Part shown: positions 17,732 through 52,461 of the stretch, piece by piece
Numbering within the stretch: the first letter of the stretch is position 1
Layout of the letters: every line of letters begins with the position of its first letter
Source: a virus
DNA: 64,000 nt
IMG/VR virus record: IMGVR_UViG_3300025684_000015
Location: 1-64,000 of that record
Reading direction: 5' to 3' (one strand)
Program-made: the position numbers and the translations under genes
Notes under the pieces: model-generated
Told to the model about the DNA's origin: nothing
The model's input: only the letters and a program-made list of their open reading frames with translations
Database searches by the model: none

Positions 17732-18886
17732 TTAATCCTGTGTGTTAAGTTGTTTCCAAGCTTTTGGGGATATATCTTGAAATTTAGTTGTATTAAGGGA
17801 ATCATACCATTCAATATATTTTATAATCTTTTTTGTTTCATATGTAGTATTCTGCTCATGACCTAAAAATACTTCATACTTTTCATACTTATCCATATCT
17901 TCATAAAGAATGTTTTGTTCGTTCCACAAATCTTGTCTAAATTGTCTAGGTGTAGATAAACAAGATATATATTGATTAGCAGCAATCCCAATTCTTCTTA
18001 CTTGATATTGATCGAATTGTGTTAACCATTCAGACAATTCACCAAGATGTTCCATATTAGCTAAAGTAATTGTTGTATGGTTTCTCATTTTTATATTTGA
18101 ATTTGCACGTGCAAATTCATTCCATAAACTAATTACTTCTTGAATATCTTTCCAAGTCCCGCCATTTCTTCCCCATTCGTTAACTTGGCCAACTCCATCA
18201 ATAGATGTTTCGGGTTCAACAGCTTTAAACTTTTTAAATAGTTCTGTAAATTTGTGAGGAAAGACTGTAGCATTTGTATTGAATTTTAATTTGATATTAC
18301 TTACATCACGATCAGTAAACCACTCTAAGAACTTAAGAGTCACCTTACTATACATAGGTTCTCCACCCATTAATCTAATAGTATGAAGTCTAGATAAATC
18401 GCTGTTCTCCATTAATCGAATGACATTATCATATATTGGAGATTGAATATTATATTCACTAAAGTCATGATACGGATCTAAAAAGTCTTTGTTCTCTTTA
18501 TAAATTTTATTCCATCTAGAGCTATATGTTGGATTGCACATAACACAATTCATATTACAGATATTATCAAATCCAACTTCTAAAGATTGAATGGTATTAC
18601 CGGTAGGAACAATAAACTTATTCATTCCATCAATAACGCACTTTCTTCCAAAAGACGTATCGCGGTGGCACGCTCTACACCCACTAGGCCACTGCTCTGT
18701 CGGAGTCTTAATTACCCCTTGAAAGTGATCAAGAATTTGTTCAAAGTTTTGAAAGTCGTCAATGACTGGAGAATAGTCTTCCCAACGGCAACATGGTTTA
18801 GATGTACCATTTGGCTTAATGGTAACATAGCCATGTTTAGCTGTACAGTCAAACATTCTACCAGGAATTTGAGGATAGCTATTCAC
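17732..18886 (-). CDS. radical SAM protein with N-terminal Cys-rich (Twitch-like) segment
   Basis: CNMNCVMC, GGEP, NTNA, SIDG; N-terminal PCC and CRAC. Confidence 0.85.
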   Translation of the reverse strand: MNSYPQIPGRMFDCTAKHGYVTIKPNGTSKPCCRWEDYSPVIDDFQNFEQILDHFQGVIKTPTEQWPSGCRACHRDTSFGRKCVIDGMNKFIVPTGNTIQSLEVGFDNICNMNCVMCNPTYSSRWNKIYKENKDFLDPYHDFSEYNIQSPIYDNVIRLMENSDLSRLHTIRLMGGEPMYSKVTLKFLEWFTDRDVSNIKLKFNTNATVFPHKFTELFKKFKAVEPETSIDGVGQVNEWGRNGGTWKDIQEVISLWNEFARANSNIKMRNHTTITLANMEHLGELSEWLTQFDQYQVRRIGIAANQYISCLSTPRQFRQDLWNEQNILYEDMDKYEKYEVFLGHEQNTTYETKKIIKYIEWYDSLNTTKFQDISPKAWKQLNTQD

Positions 18887-40818: not shown

Positions 40819-41394
40819 ATGAATGATTATGTTATCCCTCTAAGTAAGCTATCTTACGATAAAGAAGCATGCTTAGAATTTTTTAAAACTTTAGATTTTG
40901 GGAATCGGTGGGATGATAGGCCTACTGGCAGGTATATTCGTGCAGAAAATCCTGATGGCTATTTAGAAGTTCCATGCATTAAACAAATCAATAATCAACT
41001 ACCATATAGCGTCAATTTTCAATTTATTAAGATTGTTGGAGATTGGACAATGCCTATTCACATTGATACATATAGGACAGCTGTATTAATGATACCACTA
41101 TCACCAGATCCAGCACCAACTTATTGGTATGAAGAACCTGACTATATAAAAAAATTACGATTGTCTGGAGATAGAGATGCTTATATTAAAGCTTCAAGAA
41201 AATTAAAAATAGATCCGATTTACACACATATTCATGATGGTATACCTACTATTATTAATTCAGAATTGCCGCATGGTACTGATACACAGAATGGAATTGA
41301 TCGGCTTACCATACAAATAGGAATGGCCAATACTGATACTGGACCATTCCTATCTTGGGATGAAATTTTTGAAAAAGTAAAAGACTTAGTCTAA
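40819..41394 (+). CDS. 2OG-Fe(II)/AspH-like oxygenase
   Basis: PIHID, INSELPHG, RLTIQI. Confidence 0.7.
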   Translation: MNDYVIPLSKLSYDKEACLEFFKTLDFGNRWDDRPTGRYIRAENPDGYLEVPCIKQINNQLPYSVNFQFIKIVGDWTMPIHIDTYRTAVLMIPLSPDPAPTYWYEEPDYIKKLRLSGDRDAYIKASRKLKIDPIYTHIHDGIPTIINSELPHGTDTQNGIDRLTIQIGMANTDTGPFLSWDEIFEKVKDLV

Positions 41395-41688
41395 TTACTC
41401 TACTTCGCCTTTAAATACCCATGTGCGAACAATACCATTTTCATCATTATAGGCTGTTCTTGCATTAGCTGCGTCTTGATCACCACTTTCAGACTCTGCT
41501 TTATATGCTAACCAAATTTCTTCGGTTTCTGCATAGTTTGTCAAAGTTAAAACCAAACCATCTTCAGACATAGCGCGCTCACGAACAATCTTATATTCTG
41601 ATTGTGTGTGTAGAATCATGTCATTTGTTGGTTGCCAAAATGGTACATCAACGCTAGGACGAGTAAATGTCATAACCGTTTTATACAT
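41395..41688 (-). CDS. hypothetical protein
   Basis: Coupled to dctP; TRPSVDVPFW...YNDENGI. Confidence 0.65.
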   Translation of the reverse strand: MYKTVMTFTRPSVDVPFWQPTNDMILHTQSEYKIVRERAMSEDGLVLTLTNYAETEEIWLAYKAESESGDQDAANARTAYNDENGIVRTWVFKGEVE

Positions 41689-42644
41689 TATGCTGCTCCT
41701 TTAATATCTGCAACTAGGCCATTCTCAAAGAATGACTCATATTGCGGATAAACTGATTTAAGAGCTGTAGAAAATCTTGCTCTTTCTTTTTCTGACATAA
41801 CAACAGTATCAATGCCAAAAGCTTTTGCTTCTGTTTGAACTCTAACATTATCTGCCAGTGAATCTTCTCTTTCGATTTTAGCTGCTTCTAATGAAGCTTC
41901 TTTCCATGCTTGTTGATCATTAGCAGACATAGAATCCCATAGTTGTTTATTCATTACAATTGAAGTAAGGAATAATGAGTGTGAAGTGTCATTAATATAT
42001 TTAGCTACTTCATGCTGCTGTCTAGCAAAGAATCGAGCATATGTGGTAGTACCAGCATCAATACGACCATCTTTCATTGCTTGATTAATTTCATCAACTA
42101 ACATTTGAACTGGTTTAGCTTGCACTGCTTCAAACATAGATTGAGATACTGGGCTTTTGGAGCAACCAATAGAAAGATCATAGAAATCTTCAAGTCTTTC
42201 TAGAGTCTTTGTTGAAGGAATAATCCTATATCCACCTGAATATGTAAAAGCTAAACCTTTTAAATTAGATTTTTTCTCGAGCCATGAGAACAGATTTTGA
42301 CCAATTTTTCCATCGAGTACTTTTTCGGCATGGCCATGATCTTCGAATAAGAATGGAAGCCCTAGGGAAAACATGTTCTTTTCAAACTTCCCTAGAGTTT
42401 CTACATATGTTGTAGCAATATCAATATTGCCAGAGTTAACTAAACTAACAACTTTTTCTCTATCACTAGAGTGAATAGATAAGTTACTACCAGTTTCTTT
42501 ATTCCATTCGGATAGACTTAAAACCCGTAGATCATATCTACCATCAGTGCTATCTTTGATTTTTGCACTAAATACTTTTGCTGCGCGCAAAAATACATTG
42601 AATGGTTCGTGTGCAATAACCCACGTAAGTTGTTTAGTTTCCAT
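41688..42644 (-). CDS. dctP: TRAP-type substrate-binding protein (DctP-like), no signal peptide
   Basis: LPFLFED..HAEKVLDG, GGYR, AMKDGRIDA; begins at the mature fold. Confidence 0.85.
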   Translation of the reverse strand: METKQLTWVIAHEPFNVFLRAAKVFSAKIKDSTDGRYDLRVLSLSEWNKETGSNLSIHSSDREKVVSLVNSGNIDIATTYVETLGKFEKNMFSLGLPFLFEDHGHAEKVLDGKIGQNLFSWLEKKSNLKGLAFTYSGGYRIIPSTKTLERLEDFYDLSIGCSKSPVSQSMFEAVQAKPVQMLVDEINQAMKDGRIDAGTTTYARFFARQQHEVAKYINDTSHSLFLTSIVMNKQLWDSMSANDQQAWKEASLEAAKIEREDSLADNVRVQTEAKAFGIDTVVMSEKERARFSTALKSVYPQYESFFENGLVADIKGAA

Positions 42645-42650
42645 TTTAGT

Positions 42651-43604
42651 TTACTCTCCGAAAATTTCTCTGTATCCTGGCTCTAATAGTTTTCTATTAG
42701 CAATATACGCATTCTTTAATCCTTGCGAATTAAGTGCTGCTTTATCTATATTTATCATTCTTTTTTCGCGTTCTGCCTTAGCTTTTTCACTTTGTACGGC
42801 TTTTGCTAAATTAATTTCATACCATTTTACAATTTCTGGATCAGTACCTTTTGCTAAAAGGGCACCGACTGTAGACATTTGTAAAATTCCTGGATATGTT
42901 TCATTAACAGCTTCAGTATTAGGCAATGCTGGTAGTCTTCCATTAGACATTACCGCAATATACTTAATATCACCACTATTATAGAACGCAACTGTTGGTG
43001 GCATACCACCTACCCAAATATCAACTTCACCAGCGGCTACGTCTTTAATAGCTTCTGCTGATTTTCTATATTTTACAAAGTTGACTTTATCTTTTGAGAT
43101 ACCTTCAGCTTCTAAAATAAGATTTGTTGCAACAATCTGATTAGGGAATGTTGTTGTGATATTTAGTGGTTTATTTGAAGTGCGAATCCATTCAACCAAT
43201 GCGGCTAATGAATTAATAGGTGTGTCGTGCTTTACGGCGATCACAATACTAGAAGTGATCAAGCCAGAAGTAAATTCGAAATCATTCGCCCAATCGTAAT
43301 CAACCAACTCTGGGTTGGTGACTTCACCCATTACATGACTAATGCTTGTAGTCAAAAGCACGTGATGGCCATCTGCTGGGTAAGATTTAAGAAAATGTTT
43401 TGTTCCGATAATACCAGCGGCACCTGGTTTAAACTCATAGATTACTTCAACACCAAGTGCTTCTTCAATTGACATAAAGCCAGTTGCATGAAGAGATGTT
43501 GGAGAAGAAGGAACCGTAACGGTAATAGGACCTGTTGGTTCCCATGCATACACAGTCGTGTTTGCTAGCACAGCAATAACGAAAGTCATAATATATTTTA
43601 ACAT
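42651..43604 (-). CDS. tctC: tripartite tricarboxylate transporter substrate-binding protein (TctC/Bug)
   Basis: Signal peptide; PTGPITVTVP, KPGAAGIIG, PADGH, VKYRK..EAIKDV..GEVD, LPNT. Confidence 0.85.
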   Translation of the reverse strand: MLKYIMTFVIAVLANTTVYAWEPTGPITVTVPSSPTSLHATGFMSIEEALGVEVIYEFKPGAAGIIGTKHFLKSYPADGHHVLLTTSISHVMGEVTNPELVDYDWANDFEFTSGLITSSIVIAVKHDTPINSLAALVEWIRTSNKPLNITTTFPNQIVATNLILEAEGISKDKVNFVKYRKSAEAIKDVAAGEVDIWVGGMPPTVAFYNSGDIKYIAVMSNGRLPALPNTEAVNETYPGILQMSTVGALLAKGTDPEIVKWYEINLAKAVQSEKAKAEREKRMINIDKAALNSQGLKNAYIANRKLLEPGYREIFGE

Positions 43605-43649
43605 AATATTTTTTTTTCCTTTTAATGGGATTTATTTGATTTATACGAT

Positions 43650-43657
43650 TATTTATA
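43650..43657 (-). promoter_or_regulatory. T4-type late promoter upstream of tctC-dctP
   Basis: TATAAATA in the intergenic region. Confidence 0.7.
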
Positions 43658-43660
43658 TTT

Positions 43661-44386
43661 TTACTTATTTGTCATTGAGCACAATTTAAGAACATTCTCC
43701 CAAGTCTTAGGAACGTTAACAACCAAATGAATTGATCCATCTTCCCAAGAATGAGTTCTATGCGTTTTCATTGTATCAACGTAATAAGCCCGACCAGGAA
43801 TAATATCCTGTTTTTGGCCAGATTGACTCCATTCAAAAGAATCACTATCACATGCTTTCGATAAGAAAGCTACGATACGAATAGTTTTTCTAGTAATAAG
43901 TGGATAGTCTTTATGCGGTGGGAAATACCCACCCGCATTTACTTTAACTAAGAAAGTTCTACCAAGTTTGTCAAATGGTTCCAACAACTCATGGAGAGAA
44001 GTTAGAGCATGATATACGTCTGTCTTATGGTTGAAGTCTTGGTCAAGTAAAAACTCGTTTCCAGTCTTAATTCTAGATTGTGGGATAGAAAGATTTTCCG
44101 AATGAGAACTTCCTTCTAATCCAACTAGAACAAGACCTTCTCTATTATTTGGTGCCCATGCTTTTTTCAAGTATGGTTCCCAATCGTTATCAAATAACGA
44201 TAATTCTTTATTTAATTGATCTAAATTAATTCTTGGTTTTAATAGTTCGAATTCACCCATTGCTTGCAATTGTAGCTCGCACATAAGATCTTCTTGCGTG
44301 GGTGTAAACTTTTCTGGCTTACGAGAATACTTCTCAAACCAGTTACCAGTATTTTCACCATCACCTTTATTTTTGATTTCTGTCAT
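43661..44386 (-). CDS. aspartyl/asparaginyl beta-hydroxylase-like 2OG oxygenase
   Basis: GRT..GGYFPPHKD...GRAYYVDTMKTH...HLVVN. Confidence 0.75.
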   Translation of the reverse strand: MTEIKNKGDGENTGNWFEKYSRKPEKFTPTQEDLMCELQLQAMGEFELLKPRINLDQLNKELSLFDNDWEPYLKKAWAPNNREGLVLVGLEGSSHSENLSIPQSRIKTGNEFLLDQDFNHKTDVYHALTSLHELLEPFDKLGRTFLVKVNAGGYFPPHKDYPLITRKTIRIVAFLSKACDSDSFEWSQSGQKQDIIPGRAYYVDTMKTHRTHSWEDGSIHLVVNVPKTWENVLKLCSMTNK

Positions 44387-44418
44387 CGTAATCCCAATTC
44401 ATCGCAAATAAAATTGAT

Positions 44419-45840
44419 CTAAACATTCTTTTTCATCCTGTACATATTAGCTGATATGATTGCCAATATACATAACCATATTCCTATTGCTATATTACTA
44501 TGTATAAAGATAGAAAAGTCCCCTTGAGAAATACTAAGAGATCTTCTAAAATATTCTTCAAGCATTGGACCTAGAATTAATCCTAAAATAAATGGGACAA
44601 CATTAATATCTAATTTCATAAACAGATAACCGAGAGCAATAAAAGCACAAAGAATAATTAAATCATTTGAGTTATTATTTACTCCATACGTTCCAATAAA
44701 ACAAACAGAAATAATAATAGGATATAATATTGTGTATGGTATTTTAATTAAGCTTACCCATATTTTAATCAACGGATAATTTAAAATAAGAAGAATAATA
44801 TTTCCAAAGAAAATACTGTAAACTAAAGACCAAAATAAATCAGGATGGTTTTGAATTACTAATGGACCAGGAACAATTCCAAATACAATCATGGCACCAA
44901 GAATCAAAGTCATTGCCATATTTTCTGGTAATCCAAGACTTAATAAAGGAATAAGACTGCCTTGAGCAGCAGCATTATTTGCAGCTTCTGGAGCAGCAAC
45001 TCCTTCTATAACTCCGGTGCCTAAATTTTTATTAATATTTTTTTCAACAGTATAAGCAGCATATGTTGCTCCTGTTAGTCCACCACCTGGAATAATACCA
45101 AGAAACCCACCAATAAGAGTTCCTCTCAATGCTGCGGGAACAAATTGTTTTAAATCTTCTTTTGTTGGAAGAATTGCTAAATTTTTAGTCTGTACAATAG
45201 ACATAGTATTTAATGATAAATTTCGAAATACTTCGGCGAATGCAACCATTCCAATTGCAGCTGCAACAAAACTTATTCCATCATATAGATCATCAATATT
45301 GAATACAAATCTTTCAAGTCCACTATTTAAATCAACACCAACAGTTCCTGTCAATATACCAACCATAACTGCCGCTAATCCAGTTAAAAGATTATCACTT
45401 AGAATAGATGTAACACCAACAAATGCTAAACATAATAATGCAGTATATTCAGCTGGACCAAATTTAAAAGCAAGGTCAGCTAATGGTGGAGAAATAATTG
45501 CCATAGCAATTACCATAATAATACCAGCAATAAAGGAAGAAATAGCTGATACCATAATGGCTTTTCCAGCTAATCCTTTCTTTGCTAATTTATGACCATC
45601 AATACAAGTCATAATAGCACTATTTTCGCCTGGTGTATTTAATAGAATCGCTGTAGTAGATCCACCATATTGAGATCCATAATAGATTCCAGCTAACATA
45701 ATAATACCAGAAATAGGATCCATTCCAAAAGTAATTGGCAATAATAATGCAATTGTTGTTGATGGACCGAGGCCAGGTAATACACCAACGGCAGTGCCAG
45801 CAAGACATCCAATTAATAAAAATATTAATTGCTCTACCAT
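44419..45840 (-). CDS. tctA: tripartite tricarboxylate transporter large subunit
   Basis: GVLPGLG, GSQYGGS, NTPG, FGPAEY, GIIPGGG, PEAANNA, LGLP, GLILGP. Confidence 0.95.
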   Translation of the reverse strand: MVEQLIFLLIGCLAGTAVGVLPGLGPSTTIALLLPITFGMDPISGIIMLAGIYYGSQYGGSTTAILLNTPGENSAIMTCIDGHKLAKKGLAGKAIMVSAISSFIAGIIMVIAMAIISPPLADLAFKFGPAEYTALLCLAFVGVTSILSDNLLTGLAAVMVGILTGTVGVDLNSGLERFVFNIDDLYDGISFVAAAIGMVAFAEVFRNLSLNTMSIVQTKNLAILPTKEDLKQFVPAALRGTLIGGFLGIIPGGGLTGATYAAYTVEKNINKNLGTGVIEGVAAPEAANNAAAQGSLIPLLSLGLPENMAMTLILGAMIVFGIVPGPLVIQNHPDLFWSLVYSIFFGNIILLILNYPLIKIWVSLIKIPYTILYPIIISVCFIGTYGVNNNSNDLIILCAFIALGYLFMKLDINVVPFILGLILGPMLEEYFRRSLSISQGDFSIFIHSNIAIGIWLCILAIISANMYRMKKNV

Positions 45841-46250
45841 AATGGTAATGCTTTAAGTACTGTGAGTTTTAATATAATTGCTAAGACCGAAGAAACGGCT
45901 GTTGAGATAATACATGATTTCCATGTAAAGTCTTTATGAAGAGTTGAAACTAACGGAACTAAAACCACAATAGAAGCTAAAATACCAAAATACTTAAACG
46001 CAAGAATTCCTAAAAATACAGCACCCAGCATTTTAATAAGTACAAATATTTCTAAATGTAATACTTCATTATCATTTTGTGATCGAAATGCGTATACTGT
46101 TGAAATAATAATTAAAATAATAGAAATAATAAATGGGTACATTCCTGGACCCATATTTGCAAGTGTTCCTAATTGCATATTAGATGACATAATTAAAAAT
46201 ATAAATCCAATCATAAAAAGTAATATAGAAGTATATTGTTTTTTAGTCAT
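45834..46250 (-). CDS. tctB: tripartite tricarboxylate transporter small subunit
   Basis: About 4 TM helices, MGPGMYP motif, C-terminal LP; adjacent to tctA. Confidence 0.85.
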   Translation of the reverse strand: MTKKQYTSILLFMIGFIFLIMSSNMQLGTLANMGPGMYPFIISIILIIISTVYAFRSQNDNEVLHLEIFVLIKMLGAVFLGILAFKYFGILASIVVLVPLVSTLHKDFTWKSCIISTAVSSVLAIILKLTVLKALPLW

Positions 46251-47269
46251 TATTCATATCCACAAAAATCATTATCTTCAACATAGTATTGTTTAATAAA
46301 CTCTGTATCAAATGGTTTATAAAAGGATTGTAAAGAATTTGATTCAGATACAATCATATCAGGTTTATTTGTAAAGAATAATTTACCCATAGACTGCCAT
46401 TTTCTTTTGTAAATATGATAGTCTTTATCCTTTGTATAATTATATATTAGATCTTTATAGAGTGATTTATCTGGAGATTTATTTAAGATTGACCATCTTT
46501 GAATATCGTGAGAAGAGTAAAATGTGTCAAATTCTTTATGATAACCCAATCTAGGCTTATATTTTTCTTTAGCGTTTAACCATCTAAAATTGAAATTAAA
46601 CCACCAACTAAAATCTTCAATAGTATCAATTGGCCGTGGAGAACTTTTACCAGTTTTTAACATAGCATTGATAAATGCTTCAGCCGCAATTTTATCAAAT
46701 CCCAACTCAGCACAAACATTATATAGATTAGTTTTTGTTGCTGGTTTAGTAGTCCAAGATTTATCAATTCGTGAAAGCATCATGCCACTAATAATTTGAT
46801 CTGCATGTTCTGCTTGAATAGTAATACCATCATTATCTTCAGATAAATGTTTTTCAATTGATAAAAGTTTAAAGTTTGGTAAAATATAAGTGTAATAAAA
46901 TTTAGGATTCTCTTTTATAGAGTCACGATTCATTACAATTGTTATTTGATCTAAATTAATATTAGACTTAAGAAATGATATAACCATTAAGGTTGAATCA
47001 ATTCCGCCACTCCATTGTAAATATAAATGTTTACCTGTATCAACTAATTCTAAACAACGACTTTGTAATACATCTTCAAATGTTCCAACAGCTTTAACTG
47101 TAGGAATTTTATATTCTTCTGGCATATATTGCTTTAATGGTGTTACTAATGTTTCTGTTCTATCTGACATCCAACTAAAACGCATAATTTTGCGCATAGC
47201 TCTTTCGTATAATACCATATCAGGAGTATCTAGAGCACGTAATAATATTGTTGAAGCATGTAGAATCAA
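46250..47269 (-). CDS. asparagine synthetase-like PP-loop ATP pyrophosphatase (no glutaminase domain)
   Basis: WSGGIDST, SIKENP, AEHADQI, DFSWWFNF. Confidence 0.75.
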   Translation of the reverse strand: MILHASTILLRALDTPDMVLYERAMRKIMRFSWMSDRTETLVTPLKQYMPEEYKIPTVKAVGTFEDVLQSRCLELVDTGKHLYLQWSGGIDSTLMVISFLKSNINLDQITIVMNRDSIKENPKFYYTYILPNFKLLSIEKHLSEDNDGITIQAEHADQIISGMMLSRIDKSWTTKPATKTNLYNVCAELGFDKIAAEAFINAMLKTGKSSPRPIDTIEDFSWWFNFNFRWLNAKEKYKPRLGYHKEFDTFYSSHDIQRWSILNKSPDKSLYKDLIYNYTKDKDYHIYKRKWQSMGKLFFTNKPDMIVSESNSLQSFYKPFDTEFIKQYYVEDNDFCGYE

Positions 47270-47874
47270 TTGACGTATACCATATTATCAATTAGACGTT
47301 TTAGTTTTGGTAATTCTTGCTGACTACTAATGTCATTTACTTTTTGAATTAATTTATAAACTGAACCATCAATTTTAGCTTTACCATAAAAATAAGAATC
47401 ATTTTCCATATCAATAAATTTTTTAGCCAATTCAAAAGATAATCCTGCTTGACTTGCAAAACATTCTATCATTTTATCATTATATAAAATATAGCGATCA
47501 GTATATCTACTCATAAATTTTTCGGCCATATCATCTATTAAAATAAGACATTCTTTTTTTATATTTAATATCTTTTTTGTCTTTTTAAATCTTATTGTTT
47601 TATGAGATACTAGTAAATCTACTTTTTGAATTTGATAGAATTCATCGATATCACTAGGTTTGGCGACAGAACCTTCACCAGGTCTTACCATTCCTACGTT
47701 TTGTTGTAGTAAAATTTGATCTATATTTGGATTAAAAGTTGATGTTGTTCGTACTCGCATTACACTTGTATTTAATGCGTACTCACAAAGTTTATTTGCT
47801 ATATCATAATTAGAAGCTTCGCAGTAGATCAGGTGTTCTTCCTGATCTACCACAAAGATATATGTATTAATCAT
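47266..47874 (-). CDS. hypothetical partner of the PP-loop enzyme
   Basis: Coupled directly upstream of the AsnB-like gene. Confidence 0.65.
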   Translation of the reverse strand: MINTYIFVVDQEEHLIYCEASNYDIANKLCEYALNTSVMRVRTTSTFNPNIDQILLQQNVGMVRPGEGSVAKPSDIDEFYQIQKVDLLVSHKTIRFKKTKKILNIKKECLILIDDMAEKFMSRYTDRYILYNDKMIECFASQAGLSFELAKKFIDMENDSYFYGKAKIDGSVYKLIQKVNDISSQQELPKLKRLIDNMVYVN

Positions 47875-48665
47875 TTTTTGCGAATTCTAAAAGTAACTAC
47901 TTTGCGATCAGCTTCTGCAAAAATTGAAGCTGGTCTAGTTGTGTGTAATCTACGAGAATCATAACAAATAATACGACCTGGCTTAGGACTTACTACTTTA
48001 CAAGTATCGCCCCAGTCAATTGGAAAACCTCGTTGTTGGCCACCTTTTTGATATCTTTGGTCGTCACCAGTTTCTGTATGATTGCTGGTGTAGAACATAT
48101 TATCCGCAAACCATGTTGGATACCATACAGGGTTAGCAACATACATACATGTATATGTACGGTCATTCGATTCATCGGGTTGATCTCGATGAATTCCATG
48201 AGTATGCTTATAGTGTTCATTTGGCTGAGCCGCGGCGTACACTCTCCAACCCTGATCCATATTGGGATCTAATGTTGGTGGTGCAGTGTATTTATCTTTT
48301 ATATACTCATCTGGAGAATTTTCTGCTACTGTGCCTTCGGGCTTACCAGCAATTTCAAATTCACCATCAAATTGCATATTGATACATTGCCACAATTTAT
48401 AAATTGGATCATGAGCTTTTAGACTTTCTTCGTCAGAAGCAAAATGAGCTCTTGGCATGAATAAATGGCGGGGCTCTTCCAGCCGCTTGGGGTAATCATT
48501 GGCTTTCCATTTACCAGGAACATATTCATGAATTTCATGAAAGTTGCTAGTTTTCTGCCTTTTCCAAGCGGCTGTCCAAGTTTGTTCTAATAGGTATTCC
48601 CATACTGAATGTCTAAGATCAGCTGGAACAGCGTCATCGACAACTCTTACTTCATAATCAATCAT
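47871..48665 (-). CDS. 2OG-Fe(II) oxygenase (prolyl-hydroxylase-like)
   Basis: IHRD, PKPGRIICYD..RLH, R. Confidence 0.8.
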   Translation of the reverse strand: MIDYEVRVVDDAVPADLRHSVWEYLLEQTWTAAWKRQKTSNFHEIHEYVPGKWKANDYPKRLEEPRHLFMPRAHFASDEESLKAHDPIYKLWQCINMQFDGEFEIAGKPEGTVAENSPDEYIKDKYTAPPTLDPNMDQGWRVYAAAQPNEHYKHTHGIHRDQPDESNDRTYTCMYVANPVWYPTWFADNMFYTSNHTETGDDQRYQKGGQQRGFPIDWGDTCKVVSPKPGRIICYDSRRLHTTRPASIFAEADRKVVTFRIRKK

Positions 48666-48693
48666 TCAAATCACATCCTATTTTTATTTTAGC

Positions 48694-49635
48694 TTAAGAC
48701 TTTTGAATTTTCTCAATGATATTATCACTGAAAACATTCATGTACTTTGTGTACAGATGAGCAGTAGCTGCTTTGAACTTAGCAGTTTCTGATTCAGCCA
48801 TCTTAACAATTTTAATGCCTTGGGTCTTACATTGATCTACGATACCATCGATAGAAGCAACTGATTCACGACGCTCTAAACGAGCAGCATTCAATGCAGC
48901 GTCTTTCAACACGGCTTGAGTCTTTTCATCTAGACCAGCGTAGAATTCTTTACCAACAATAATTGAGGTAAGGAAAAGTGAATGTGCAGTGTCATTAACT
49001 GTACCAAATGCTTCACCCTGCTTAAGAGGAAGAATACGTACATATGTAGACTCACCACCATCAATAACACCATTTGCATGTGCTTCATTCATTTCTTCAA
49101 GTTCAACTGAATCAACAACATTTGCGCCTAGAGCTTTAAATGTGTCTACAGCAACAGGAGACTTAGAAGTACGAATGCTCATACCTTCAAAAGCAGCGAC
49201 GGTATCTAATTCTTTTTCAGACGGGATAACACGGTATCCACCTGAATATGTAAAGGCCAAACCTTGTACAGGTGATTTTGCCTTAAGTCCATCCAATAGA
49301 GACTGGCCGATAGAGCCTTCTAGAACTTTATCTGCATGGTCATGATCGCGGAACAAGAAAGGCATGTCAAGTGCATACATATCTTTATTCCAATCACCAA
49401 GCCATGTAGTATACATCTGCGATGCTTCTACAACGCCATCTTCCATTAACTGGAGAAGATCTTGTTTAGTGACTTTTTCGCCACCATTATACTTATTTGA
49501 GTACTCAGTCAAAGAAAGAATTTCGATGTCTAAAGCACCATTTGTTTGCTCAAGTACTTGCGCTTTGAATCTTTCTGCAGCGCGCAGAAACAAATCAATA
49601 GGCTCATGAGCAATAACCCAACGAATGGTTTTCAT
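48694..49635 (-). CDS. dctP: TRAP-type substrate-binding protein (DctP-like), no signal peptide
   Basis: MPFLFRD..HADKVLEG, GGYR, GMSIRT, FKALGA, GVIDGGE; AGGAG SD before the ATG. Confidence 0.88.
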   Translation of the reverse strand: MKTIRWVIAHEPIDLFLRAAERFKAQVLEQTNGALDIEILSLTEYSNKYNGGEKVTKQDLLQLMEDGVVEASQMYTTWLGDWNKDMYALDMPFLFRDHDHADKVLEGSIGQSLLDGLKAKSPVQGLAFTYSGGYRVIPSEKELDTVAAFEGMSIRTSKSPVAVDTFKALGANVVDSVELEEMNEAHANGVIDGGESTYVRILPLKQGEAFGTVNDTAHSLFLTSIIVGKEFYAGLDEKTQAVLKDAALNAARLERRESVASIDGIVDQCKTQGIKIVKMAESETAKFKAATAHLYTKYMNVFSDNIIEKIQKS

Positions 49636-49687
49636 TGTTAAACTCCTAATGTTAACACGTGTTTACGTTTTGGTTTGCAACCAACTT

Positions 49688-49695
49688 TATTTATA
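49688..49695 (-). promoter_or_regulatory. T4-type late promoter upstream of dctP
   Basis: TATAAATA in the intergenic region. Confidence 0.7.
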
Positions 49696-49699
49696 TGTT

Positions 49700-50629
49700 T
49701 TATTTCTTAATATTGTCGTTATGCTTAATTAAAAGCTTTTCAACGATCGCAATATTTTCTAAATAGAATGCACCAATATCTTTACCATCAAATACCGGTG
49801 AATTCATGTCTGATAGTCCAAATACTTTATCTTTACCAAGATTTTTTGTAGCAGCATTTAATACATATCCAAGCTTCAATCTTTTTAGTGTTGGCATTTC
49901 TGAAGAAGCAACAGTAATATTAAATACTTGTGGAGCAGATACTCCCTGTTCAGCTAATGTTGCTACTTCTGGAAGAAGTGGATGGCGGGAAGTACACGAA
50001 GCCGCGGCGGCTTGAATATTTGGATTTTTAGTTTTCATTTGGATATAGTTTTTAGCTTTTTCTACTACCATATTGACTGATCCATCTCCTGCCATTAACA
50101 CCAATCCTTCATAATTAGATTTAAAAATTACGTAATTGATTTCGGTTTTAGCTGCTTCACCAATTTGGAGAGATGTCAAATGCGTAGCATTACCAATACC
50201 TACACCACCAACGGTCATGACATCTTTACCAGCATTTCGCATAGCCTCAATTGAATCTCCTAGATTCGAAATTACAATCCAGCATGCAGATCCTAAAGCA
50301 TGAATAGGAACATATTTTTCACGATCTAATTTACCAGATCTAGTATGTTCTACATATTTTGGTGCGATAATAGATAATCTATTTTGTGGAGATGCATCCA
50401 TTTGTTTTACAGCAATAATTTGCTGACCACCTGGTTTATTTTCAAGATGAAATTGAAATTGATCTTGAATCTTATTAGCTTCTTCGACAATTGCTAAATA
50501 CGCGGGTGTTCCGCCATGAGACGCTGAATACGGACTTTGAATATAGATGTCTTCTTTTGCAAAAGCGTGTGTAGACCCTAGTGTAAACGCAACTGTCGCG
50601 CTAACCATTAAAGTTTTTAAGTTTTTCAT
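49700..50629 (-). CDS. tctC: TctC/Bug substrate-binding protein
   Basis: Signal peptide ending AFA; PYSASHGG, ENKPGG, GVGIGNATHL, LPEVATLAEQG. Confidence 0.8.
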   Translation of the reverse strand: MKNLKTLMVSATVAFTLGSTHAFAKEDIYIQSPYSASHGGTPAYLAIVEEANKIQDQFQFHLENKPGGQQIIAVKQMDASPQNRLSIIAPKYVEHTRSGKLDREKYVPIHALGSACWIVISNLGDSIEAMRNAGKDVMTVGGVGIGNATHLTSLQIGEAAKTEINYVIFKSNYEGLVLMAGDGSVNMVVEKAKNYIQMKTKNPNIQAAAASCTSRHPLLPEVATLAEQGVSAPQVFNITVASSEMPTLKRLKLGYVLNAATKNLGKDKVFGLSDMNSPVFDGKDIGAFYLENIAIVEKLLIKHNDNIKK

Positions 50630-51866
50630 AAAAATACTCTTCTATTCCTTCGTTGTTAAAATATTTCATTTGATAATTTTCATCTAAACCAAACATATTA
50701 TCTAGTTCATCGTTTATCGCAATTCGATGCCGATTCACAATGATTTGTTTAGATGGTATTTTCATTTTGTACCAATAGTACCAATCATTGGCATCTAAAC
50801 TATGTATATAGTCTTTAGCTGCCATTTTATAACGACCCTGTGTTGTGCCTAAGATTTTTTGGCCGTTATTATTATTTACCATAGACCATAATTGAAAGTC
50901 TACAGCGTTAAACCAATTAATTTGTTTTTCGTATATTTTACTACGATCAACACCTGTTGATTGAATGCTTCCAGCCCTTAGCGCACAATGCATATATTTT
51001 GGATTAAAGATAATCCACCAAAAGAAATCATGTAAGGTAGTTACTTTGCACTTTGCTGTTTCAATATTTCTAACCATTTTGTTATAATACATTTCGCCAA
51101 ATGCTTTATCAAGAGATGATTTTTCGGTATTAGAATATTTAAAATATCTACCATCTAAACAAAGATTAAAATACTTAATAATTGCTTGTTTATATTCGCT
51201 ATAATGAACTTCTGGGTTGTCAATATTATCTTTTAACGCATATGCTTCTTTTGTATAATCAAAATAATAAGGAATTGACGGATATAATTTAGTACCTAAT
51301 TCAGTACCAAATAGAGCATCACCTTGATCACCTACAATAACTGTATAGTTTTGTTCCACAACAGTACGTCTCATATCAAATTCTTTACTGTTATGAATCT
51401 TAAGTTTATCTTTAATAAATCTATTATAGAAGAATTCATTCTCAATAATTGAGTCAAAACTCATTGAAATTGTAATATTATCTAATTGTTTATCTGTAAG
51501 ATTTTTAATTAATGCCGCAACAATTGCTGTTGAATCTATACCACCAGAATATAGAATAAGAAATTGTTCATCTGTATTATCAATTCTTTTTGCGATATTT
51601 AAAGCTGTTTCATCACTAATTTGCGCAAATGATTTATTAAAGTCTTTTGATAAATCTGGCATATCATAACCAGGCGGTAATACCAAATCATCACCCCATG
51701 GAGTATCCCACTCTCCATCTCTTGGAGAATATGAATTATACCCAAATGCTAATGAGATATTATAAAAAAACTTAGCTCCATCGTTTTGAAAGTTATATTT
51801 TTTCATAACTTTACGATGGTAAAATTTAAAAGGTGTATAATGTATTAGAAAAAAACGGTTTTGCAT
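50601..51866 (-). CDS. asparagine synthetase-like PP-loop ATP pyrophosphatase (paralog)
   Basis: YSGGIDST, SIIENE, GDQGDALFG, DFFWWIIF. Confidence 0.75.
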   Translation of the reverse strand: MQNRFFLIHYTPFKFYHRKVMKKYNFQNDGAKFFYNISLAFGYNSYSPRDGEWDTPWGDDLVLPPGYDMPDLSKDFNKSFAQISDETALNIAKRIDNTDEQFLILYSGGIDSTAIVAALIKNLTDKQLDNITISMSFDSIIENEFFYNRFIKDKLKIHNSKEFDMRRTVVEQNYTVIVGDQGDALFGTELGTKLYPSIPYYFDYTKEAYALKDNIDNPEVHYSEYKQAIIKYFNLCLDGRYFKYSNTEKSSLDKAFGEMYYNKMVRNIETAKCKVTTLHDFFWWIIFNPKYMHCALRAGSIQSTGVDRSKIYEKQINWFNAVDFQLWSMVNNNNGQKILGTTQGRYKMAAKDYIHSLDANDWYYWYKMKIPSKQIIVNRHRIAINDELDNMFGLDENYQMKYFNNEGIEEYFYEKLKNFNG

Positions 51867-52461
51867 ATCGACTCAAATTCTCATAAAATTTTCTTTTTCG
51901 TAGGTTGCTTGTTTTAGATTTACTAAAGGCAACCATGATGTTGTCATATAATTCGTCAACATCTTTTGAATAATAAATTAGCTCGTAAATTGCTTCTTTA
52001 AATCCATTCTCAAAGTCTTTGTGACCACCATCAGATGCATGATAACCCATATCTTTATATGTTTCAATTCCCTTTGAATCTACAAAAGAAAAAATAGATT
52101 CGTACGATGATGGAAGTTCCATTTCAGTTTTTATAGTAGATTTTATAATTACAAACGTCATGCGAATATAATCTAAATGAGACTCAAAGATGTCTTGTGG
52201 AGTGTTCTGCTGAGGACCCAAATCTACATAAGAATCTTGTGGTTTAATTACTAGATATGGATATGGAGAAGACTGGCGGTATCCCTTTGGGTTACCTAGT
52301 GTCCAATTAGTACATACGCTATTATCAATTTCAGGCAATGTGACTGGAATTATGTTACACAATATTTTAGAGGTAAGTACTGTGGCTGTCTCGTATAGAG
52401 AGTGTACATCTTGATCGATAATTAAAAATCGTTCAATAGTATTTGAATATAATCCATGCAT
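51826..52461 (-). CDS. hypothetical partner of the PP-loop enzyme
   Basis: Same position relative to the AsnB-like gene as 47266..47874. Confidence 0.65.
   Translation of the reverse strand: MHGLYSNTIERFLIIDQDVHSLYETATVLTSKILCNIIPVTLPEIDNSVCTNWTLGNPKGYRQSSPYPYLVIKPQDSYVDLGPQQNTPQDIFESHLDYIRMTFVIIKSTIKTEMELPSSYESIFSFVDSKGIETYKDMGYHASDGGHKDFENGFKEAIYELIYYSKDVDELYDNIMVAFSKSKTSNLRKRKFYENLSRYAKPFFSNTLYTF

Follow-up and report, generated by a model that had tools for sequence, protein, structure and literature searches.

Two DctP-family proteins of a T4-like marine phage lack signal peptides and belong to a phage-wide clade genetically coupled to AsnB-type synthetases

The solute-binding proteins of the TRAP (tripartite ATP-independent periplasmic) transporters are textbook exported proteins, obligately tied to their membrane subunits, and carry a conserved arginine for the carboxylate of the ligand, which we take to be Arg-147 of SiaP. 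In SiaP this arginine acts as a selectivity filter for carboxylates, and once it was replaced the protein could bind the ligand's neutral amide (PMC4646407). The window analysed here, a stretch of 64,000 nucleotides (positions 1 to 64,000 of the IMG/VR virus record IMGVR_UViG_3300025684_000015), encodes two proteins of this family, of 318 and 313 amino acids (aa), which had been singled out in an original prediction made from the sequence alone. Like SiaP, DctP, IseP and the sugar-acid binders 4n8y and 4p47, both belong to PF03480 and have the mature two-lobe fold, and the 313-aa copy has in common with them the carboxylate arginine of the K-I-R strand. Unlike them, the two proteins have neither a signal peptide nor a DctQ/DctM partner and fall below the TIGR00787 cut-off, the 318-aa copy has lost the carboxylate arginine, and their subfamily has motifs of its own (WV[IL]AHEP, TYSGG and H218) together with an AsnB-type synthetase as partner. 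They are intact, conserved, non-exported, orphan members of the DctP fold within a phage-wide clade, and the DctP-like genes are genetically coupled to the synthetase. The two open reading frames (ORFs) are:

41688..42644, minus strand: DctP-family protein, 318 aa, no signal peptide, Arg-less subclade (PF03480, 159.7 bits; G160 at the TRAP carboxylate-Arg column)
48694..49635, minus strand: DctP-family protein, 313 aa, no signal peptide, R155 kept (PF03480, 152.2 bits)

Both scores lie above the PF03480 cut-off of 23.4, and both proteins match NF037995 (TRAP_S1) at 132.6 and 120.7 bits against a cut-off of 50; neither reaches the 175 bits of TIGR00787 (dctP), for which 130.2 and 122.9 bits were obtained. 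The absence of signal peptides claimed in the original prediction is borne out by the start regions. Upstream of the 318-aa ORF the tctC stop (TAA at 42653-42651) is followed by 6 nt and then by the ATG at 42644, the spacing on which that prediction had relied, and the open frame ahead of the start is only 2 codons long. The 313-aa ORF begins with the ATG at 49635, has AGGAG 7 nt ahead of it and is open for only 9 codons upstream. With in-frame stops at these distances a signal peptide is impossible in either copy. The start regions of both ORFs are covered by independent marine assemblies with 0-1 differences (run X4, records 10 and 14), which makes an assembly frameshift unlikely. Short contigs of the metatranscriptome run X20 are identical to parts of 41374-42603, 43349-43623 and 49485-49641; as carry-over of DNA is possible they are not evidence of transcription, and the parts that they leave uncovered carry no meaning. 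The neighbouring TctC (42651-43604) and TctC-like (49700-50629) proteins do have typical N-terminal signal peptides, as had been stated, and the TctC homologues in loci L151-L165 carry the same signal. Were the tctC stop read through into the 318-aa ORF, which lies 6 nt on in the same frame, an exported TctC-DctP fusion would result (42644-42653). As a general mechanism this candidate was rejected, the spacing not being conserved in other loci, and the in-frame arrangement is probably coincidence or translational coupling.

An AlphaFold model of the 313-aa copy, built from a 19-row alignment, has a pLDDT of 93.3 and shows the two lobes of a type II binding protein together with the long spanning helix that TRAP binding proteins have. 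From end to end it can be superposed on mature TRAP binding proteins (SiaP, IseP, DctP and structural-genomics entries) with TM scores of 0.85-0.89, and a Foldseek search with the model returned about 50 TRAP binding-protein entries (E 1e-22 to 1e-25, TM 0.79-0.89, about 313 columns). By this full-length superposition the ORF is a complete mature binding protein with no extra parts.

Loss of the signal peptide is a property of the whole phage clade. Scans of IMG/VR gave 432 and 112 stretches encoding relatives, and 156 loci were fetched from about 540 viral contigs. Taking a hydrophobic N-terminal extension as the test for a signal, a signal-like N-terminus was found in none of the 161 phage copies of these loci (0/81 and 0/80), while the TctC-like genes of the same loci all have one; alignment of homologues, named in the original prediction as the way to recognize clade-wide loss, thus gave a uniform answer. 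A search of 5.8 billion proteins retrieved 1,749 relatives, and the best 120 of these are nearly all 297-336 aa long, those aligned starting within a few residues of W-V-I-A-H-E-P. Hundreds of homologues with 50-90% identity keep the same length and start. Hallmarks of the subfamily are W-V-[IL]-A-H-E-P at the N-terminus and T-Y-S-G-G, and the residues invariant throughout it are H10, P12, TYSGG129-133, R135, R200, H218, T223 and E254/R255. In GTDB the subfamily is found mainly in Bdellovibrionota, besides Elusimicrobia, Myxococcota and others, and 39-40 of 70 cellular copies have a signal peptide. Exported orphan members from Bdellovibrionota, Elusimicrobia and related groups (L090, L095, L103-L106, L108-L121 and others) share 32-50% identity and the same invariants with the phage copies, from which they differ by their signal peptides and by their other neighbours, none of which is a PP-loop synthetase.

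These exported members are also basal in the phylogeny. In a maximum-likelihood tree, computed after trimming of the N-terminal extensions and with distant signal-bearing members as the root, signal-bearing cellular forms (Bdellovibrionota, Elusimicrobia) occupy the base, and a single clade of 69 rows, all without signal (SH-aLRT 85), contains both copies of the window and every phage copy in the tree except L054_10964, a long branch and the sole phage row outside. A second, separate signal-less clade consists of high-GC contigs of Polyangiaceae, Planctomycetota and Elusimicrobia. At least three changes of signal state are required on the tree, and three suffice. Clade-wide loss of the signal, with exported cellular relatives basal, is a new observation: the literature search found no paper on phage DctP, on signal-less TRAP binding proteins or on DctP with asparagine synthase. 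The phages carrying the clade include complete genomes of 170-374 kb, and matches in IMG/VR exceed 500. A tblastn search of a collection of 50,697 phage records found nothing closer than 21-28% identity, the matches lying in unannotated fragments or bacterial DNA, and no isolated phage with this clade was present in that collection; a megablast search with the region found no match.

The DctP-like genes are accompanied by a recurrent enzyme partner. Within the first 80 viral loci an ORF with the PP-loop motif SGGxDS adjoins the DctP-like gene in 71, on the same strand and separated from it by a median of 65 nt. The ORF lies upstream, where it is about 416-435 aa long (as is 50601-51866 of the window), or downstream, where it has about 340-400 aa, and the motif is present in all 87 ORFs of this family (87/87). 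Over all loci such an ORF lies within 300 nt in 102/156 and within 3 kb in 119/156, and 133/156 have either a PP-loop ORF or a TctC-like gene within 3 kb; the DctP-like gene is near the end of the locus in 25/156. The window holds two of these enzymes, of 339 and 421 aa, which align with 23% identity (BLASTP, E 6e-13). TsnB9, beta-lactam synthetase, asparagine synthetase (ASNS), carbapenam synthetase and AsnB all act by adenylating a carboxylate and making an amide-type bond, and these are the structural neighbours of the 421-aa enzyme. Its model (pLDDT 83) aligns with TsnB9 (Z 13.9), beta-lactam synthetase (13.1), human ASNS (12.6), carbapenam synthetase (10.8) and AsnB (9.3; all VIA-align), on the synthetase domains only and ranking above generic PP-loop enzymes. 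The phage enzyme thus has in common with the AsnB family the PP-loop SGGxDS and the synthetase domain (Z 9.3-13.9). It differs in lacking the N-terminal glutaminase, as matches run only from about residue 170 of the chain onward and no GATase Pfam match was obtained. It also differs in having no PF00733 match; none was found for the partner synthetases at E 0.01, and their NCBIfam amidotransferase matches are weak (E 8e-4). The family is almost only viral; in the ESM Atlas the nearest clusters of the 421-aa synthetase are unnamed and about 90% viral. A complex prediction of this synthetase with the 313-aa DctP-like protein scored 0.01, which counts neither for nor against binding.

An enzyme of the same class is found beside some cellular relatives. 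In five loci of the second signal-less clade the DctP-like gene is adjoined by an Asn_synthase gene (PF00733) of about 600-627 aa, and none of the signal-bearing cellular loci has an Asn_synthase neighbour. This cellular association is new, as are the Arg-less subclade and the recurrent TctC-like/TctAB context described below.

The carboxylate site separates the two copies. R155 of the 313-aa protein aligns with the arginine of the KIR(T/V) motif in the solved TRAP binding proteins 4p47, 4n8y and 4xfe, and the 318-aa protein has G160 in that column, in agreement with the original prediction that the arginine is kept in one copy and lost in the other. Throughout the main signal-less clade the arginine is present in 170/170 members. 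The 318-aa protein has relatives of its own, with 46-87% identity and G, A or S in the arginine column, usually followed by Cys; over the Arg-less group the residues at the site are G (13), A (9), S (7), I (2), T (1) and F (1). The viral loci L151-L164 have the same Arg-less pattern, and a small basal group among the relatives of the 318-aa copy keeps the arginine. As a conserved subclade trait, the loss suggests a different ligand for the 318-aa protein. The earlier proposal that the two copies bind different ligands is therefore plausible as judged from the alignment, the Arg-less copy belonging to a conserved sister subclade, and the ligand of the 318-aa copy may possibly be a non-carboxylate such as an amidated product. 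Other basic residues, among them the invariant R135 and R200, could still hold an acid in the absence of this arginine.

The two copies lie in an array on the minus strand, which reads, in its first part, 211-aa ORF, 421-aa PP-loop enzyme, TctC-like protein with signal, 313-aa DctP-like protein (with Arg) and 264-aa oxygenase-like protein. It continues with a 202-aa ORF, 339-aa PP-loop enzyme, TctB, TctA, 241-aa ORF, TctC with signal and the 318-aa DctP-like protein (without Arg). Besides the two DctP-like ORFs, the features are:

42651..43604, minus strand: TctC solute-binding protein, 317 aa, signal peptide (PF03401, 92.1 bits; hydrophobic N-terminus ending VYA/WEP)
43650..43657, minus strand: TATAAATA box, T4-type late-promoter consensus, 46 nt upstream of the tctC start
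43661..44386, minus strand: 241-aa ORF, no assigned family (no Pfam, NCBIfam or PHROG match)
44419..45840, minus strand: TctA, large membrane subunit of a tripartite tricarboxylate transporter (PF01970, 469.4 bits, full length)
45834..46250, minus strand: TctB, small membrane subunit (PF07331, 39.2 bits, cut-off 29.1)
46250..47269, minus strand: PP-loop (SGGIDS) synthetase, 339 aa, paralogue of the 421-aa enzyme; homologues adjoin DctP-like genes
47266..47874, minus strand: 202-aa ORF, no assigned family (no match in any library; dissimilar to the 211-aa ORF)
47871..48665, minus strand: putative 2OG-Fe(II) oxygenase, 264 aa (weak match, PF13640, E 2e-4, 22.6 bits, cut-off 27)
49688..49695, minus strand: TATAAATA box, 53 nt upstream of the start of the 313-aa ORF
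49700..50629, minus strand: TctC-like binding protein, 309 aa, signal peptide (PF03401, 25 bits, just below the cut-off of 27)
50601..51866, minus strand: AsnB-type PP-loop (SGGIDS) synthetase domain, 421 aa, no glutaminase domain (structural matches)
51826..52461, minus strand: 211-aa ORF, no assigned family, upstream of the 421-aa synthetase (no library match)

Several of these genes recur beside the subfamily elsewhere. Homologues of the 241-aa ORF are found near the cassette in L151/L152, L196 and L213, those of the oxygenase-like protein adjoin DctP-like genes in L165, L184, L191, L213 and L215, signal-bearing homologues of the 309-aa TctC-like protein do so in other viral loci, and the 211-aa ORF has a single weak homologue, next to the cassette in L086. 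Paralogy is demonstrable in the window only for the DctP and PP-loop pairs; no significant similarity was found between the 202- and 211-aa ORFs, between the 264- and 241-aa ORFs or between the two TctC-type ORFs. The IMG/VR record is linear, comprises 97,886 bases and is about 57% complete, the window representing its first 64 kb with a GC content of about 35%. Genes for a UvsX-like recombinase, a gp41-type DnaB-like helicase, NrdA and a virion protein in the window indicate a T4-like myovirus, and near-identical DNA is present in marine/seawater metagenomes of several studies. Just downstream of the cassette a lone plus-strand ORF of 191 aa with no assigned family (40819-41394) interrupts the otherwise minus-strand array. 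A radical SAM protein of 384 aa with a weak QueE-like PHROG match is encoded at 17732-18886, distant homologues of which lie about 5 kb from an exported DctP-like gene in L103, L104, L113 and L138.

Late promoters ahead of both DctP genes had been proposed. The TATAAATA boxes are indeed present on the coding strand at 43650-43657 and 49688-49695, but the motif is not more frequent in the window than expected by chance (9 copies, 10.9 expected). Five of the eight minus-strand copies are intergenic, 10-53 nt ahead of an ORF start; coding sequence makes up about 84% of the window. Beside the box upstream of tctC, a contig of the marine run X7 has an extra T at 43648, a natural variant.

As to transport, the absence of DctQ and DctM that had been noted for the window extends to the whole record of 97,886 bases (about 57% complete), which is phage DNA only, and DctM and TctA were likewise not found in five related phage records, four of which are 100% complete (170-374 kb). 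The window does hold TctA, TctB and exported TctC, as in TctABC and orphan TctC (Bug) systems, with signals on the TctC proteins; the proteins in question belong to the DctP and not to the TctC family, and most phages carrying them are without TctA. A signal-bearing TctC-like gene lies within 3 kb of the DctP-like gene in 31/156 viral loci, and L151 and L152 share the order PP-loop, TctB, TctA, Arg-less DctP-like and TctC. A full TctABC set with two signal-bearing TctC-type proteins (42651-46250 and 49700-50629) seems unusual for a T4-like marine phage; the related loci L151 and L152 possess an equal set. On marine viral contigs tctA has been reported, as a putative auxiliary gene whose role is not known (PMC4164917, PMC6359870).

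Taken together, the DctP-like proteins probably act inside the infected cell, in a pathway other than nutrient uptake, and we consider it fairly likely that they are cytoplasmic organic-acid binders working with an amide-forming ligase. The protein would remain in the cytoplasm of the infected cell and bind a small organic acid in its Venus-flytrap cleft, where R155 of the 313-aa copy would hold the carboxylate. The neighbouring synthetase, acting in the same pathway, would adenylate that carboxylate and convert it to an amide or related product, the binder presenting or concentrating the substrate or else holding the product. The pathway may be fed by the phage's own TctC/TctAB importer, and the Arg-less 318-aa paralogue would have another molecule as its ligand, possibly a neutral one. 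With regard to the repurposed ligand binders of the original prediction, the non-exported state has held, and among the roles offered there that of a substrate carrier for adjacent enzymes fits best, a PP-loop ORF being found within 300 nt in about two-thirds of the loci.

Several observations weigh against this reading. About a quarter of the viral loci have no PP-loop ORF within 3 kb, some of them being cut at contig ends, and the Arg-less copies are usually not directly next to a synthetase. A third signal-less group, a clade of ten copies on contigs of Bdellovibrio, Bacteriovorax and gammaproteobacterial metagenome-assembled genomes (MAG), has genes for an MFS transporter and a 204-aa protein as neighbours and lacks any PP-loop gene within 6 kb; the 204-aa protein is unrelated to the 202-aa ORF of the window. 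When profiles are compared, the Asn_synthase neighbours in cells and the PP-loop family of the phages can be aligned over no more than the 28 columns of the PP-loop, so that the two associations involve the same enzyme class and not orthologues. Finally, the carboxylate arginine is present in only 15/28 exported cellular members, and since it is variable there its loss need not mean loss of acid binding.

The DctP-like protein may itself be an enzyme, its fold turned to catalysis as in other enzymes with the periplasmic-binding-protein fold, and act before or after the PP-loop synthetase in one pathway with it. A cytoplasmic location and enzyme neighbours fit this, as do invariant polar residues beyond the TRAP norm (E11 and H98/H100 in addition to H10, TYSGG129-133, R135, R200, H218, T223 and E254/R255), conserved from exported cellular to phage forms. 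The same invariants, however, are shared by the exported members from cells, for which a binding role is more likely, and the model superposes closely on ordinary TRAP binding proteins, both ligand-bound and apo, for which reasons we regard an enzymatic role as unlikely. It is also conceivable that the protein serves transport from within, docking on the cytoplasmic face of TctAB or of a host secondary transporter, or acts as a sink for imported substrate independently of the ligase. The Arg-less copy is near tctB-tctA in the window and in L151/L152, and signal-bearing TctC-like genes flank the gene in 21-31/156 loci; yet such neighbours are much rarer than synthetases, and four complete related phage genomes carry the gene without TctA or DctM. 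We know of no case in which a binding protein docks on TTT or TRAP membrane subunits from the cytoplasm, and a transport role of this kind is in our view improbable. A comparably low probability is given to a sponge sequestering a host metabolite or signal for metabolic takeover or counter-defence, with the synthetase a mere neighbour. A high-affinity binding fold in the cytoplasm, widespread in phages and here present as two diverged copies, would suit such a role, for which, although it figured in the original prediction, no specific evidence emerged. The tight and repeated pairing with one enzyme family, cells included, argues instead for a metabolic partnership, and no defence-related neighbours were seen among the loci, for which PADLOC was not searched.

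Virion association had likewise been suggested, and a late structural accessory, for example one binding acidic sugars on the host surface, would accord with the TATAAATA boxes upstream of both transcription units and with the position of the cassette between tail-fibre-like genes in 37 other loci. These are weak contextual hints. T4-like phages commonly hold non-structural genes in variable islands near their tail-fibre genes. The surroundings in the window are metabolic and transport genes, and the protein is never fused to structural domains and always travels with an enzyme, which makes this role very unlikely. That the ORFs are artefacts, by a wrong start or a frameshifted assembly, or decaying pseudogenes of captured transporter genes, is hardly credible: the unusual lack of a signal is the only point in favour, and is met by the in-frame stops directly upstream, the agreement of independent assemblies, hundreds of equal-length homologues and the high confidence of the model. 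Within the favoured reading, a cytoplasmic acid binder working with an amide-forming ligase, the gene content of the window, in which a duplicated binder-synthetase pair is joined by exported TctC-type proteins, TctA/TctB and oxygenase-like genes, suggests a chain of periplasmic capture, import, cytoplasmic capture and ligation. In a more specific form, phages would have made an exported binding protein into a cytoplasmic trap for the substrate, and the chain would yield an amidated metabolite or modification needed late in infection, with the Arg-bearing copy holding the acid and the Arg-less copy the neutral product. In this complete form the proposal is speculative and rather doubtful.

Further neighbourhoods of the subfamily were noted in viral and cellular loci. 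On an Elusimicrobia MAG contig (L122:3682-9906), two signal-less DctP-like genes in tandem share a strand with Asn_synthase, a gene for a B12-binding radical SAM protein and a 262-aa ORF, a block that is a possible cellular counterpart of the phage cassette. In the 37 IMG/VR loci mentioned above (L008-L048 and others) a 467-aa radical SAM gene and a 104-aa ORF are directly upstream of the DctP-like gene (for example L048:8300-9703 and L017:9664-9978), and the four-gene block is flanked by tail-fibre-like genes, marked by a Peptidase_S74 chaperone domain, a 1781-aa ORF and a weak BppU_N match. A DUF2061 small membrane protein immediately precedes the DctP-like gene at L073:5336-5590 and in 17 other loci, which also have homologues of gp41 and UvsX and, downstream, a tandem pair of PP-loop genes. 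The exported homologues of Bacteriovoracaceae adjoin methylmalonyl-CoA mutase and MeaB, and those of other Bdellovibrionota occur with an AMP-binding enzyme, MBOAT and a NitT/TauT-type ABC system, which recalls Dlt-like envelope modification; loci with the one or the other arrangement are L106:4659-8927, L114:7905-12066, L103, L104 and L112. A 445-kb Elusimicrobia contig (L134) has at least six subfamily paralogues within 16 kb, several with signal peptides. A cobalamin theme, considered on account of the mutase with MeaB, CobT/C/S and B12 radical SAM genes near some cellular homologues, was set aside as too scattered.

If the favoured reading is true, this signal-less and partner-less clade would represent a clear case of a transporter part reused inside the cell. 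The fixed pairing with an almost purely viral AsnB-type synthetase points to a widespread and uncharted phage pathway in marine and other aquatic environments. The DctP-like proteins are small, soluble and predicted with high confidence, which makes them easy subjects for ligand and structural studies, and the identity of their ligand would name that pathway.

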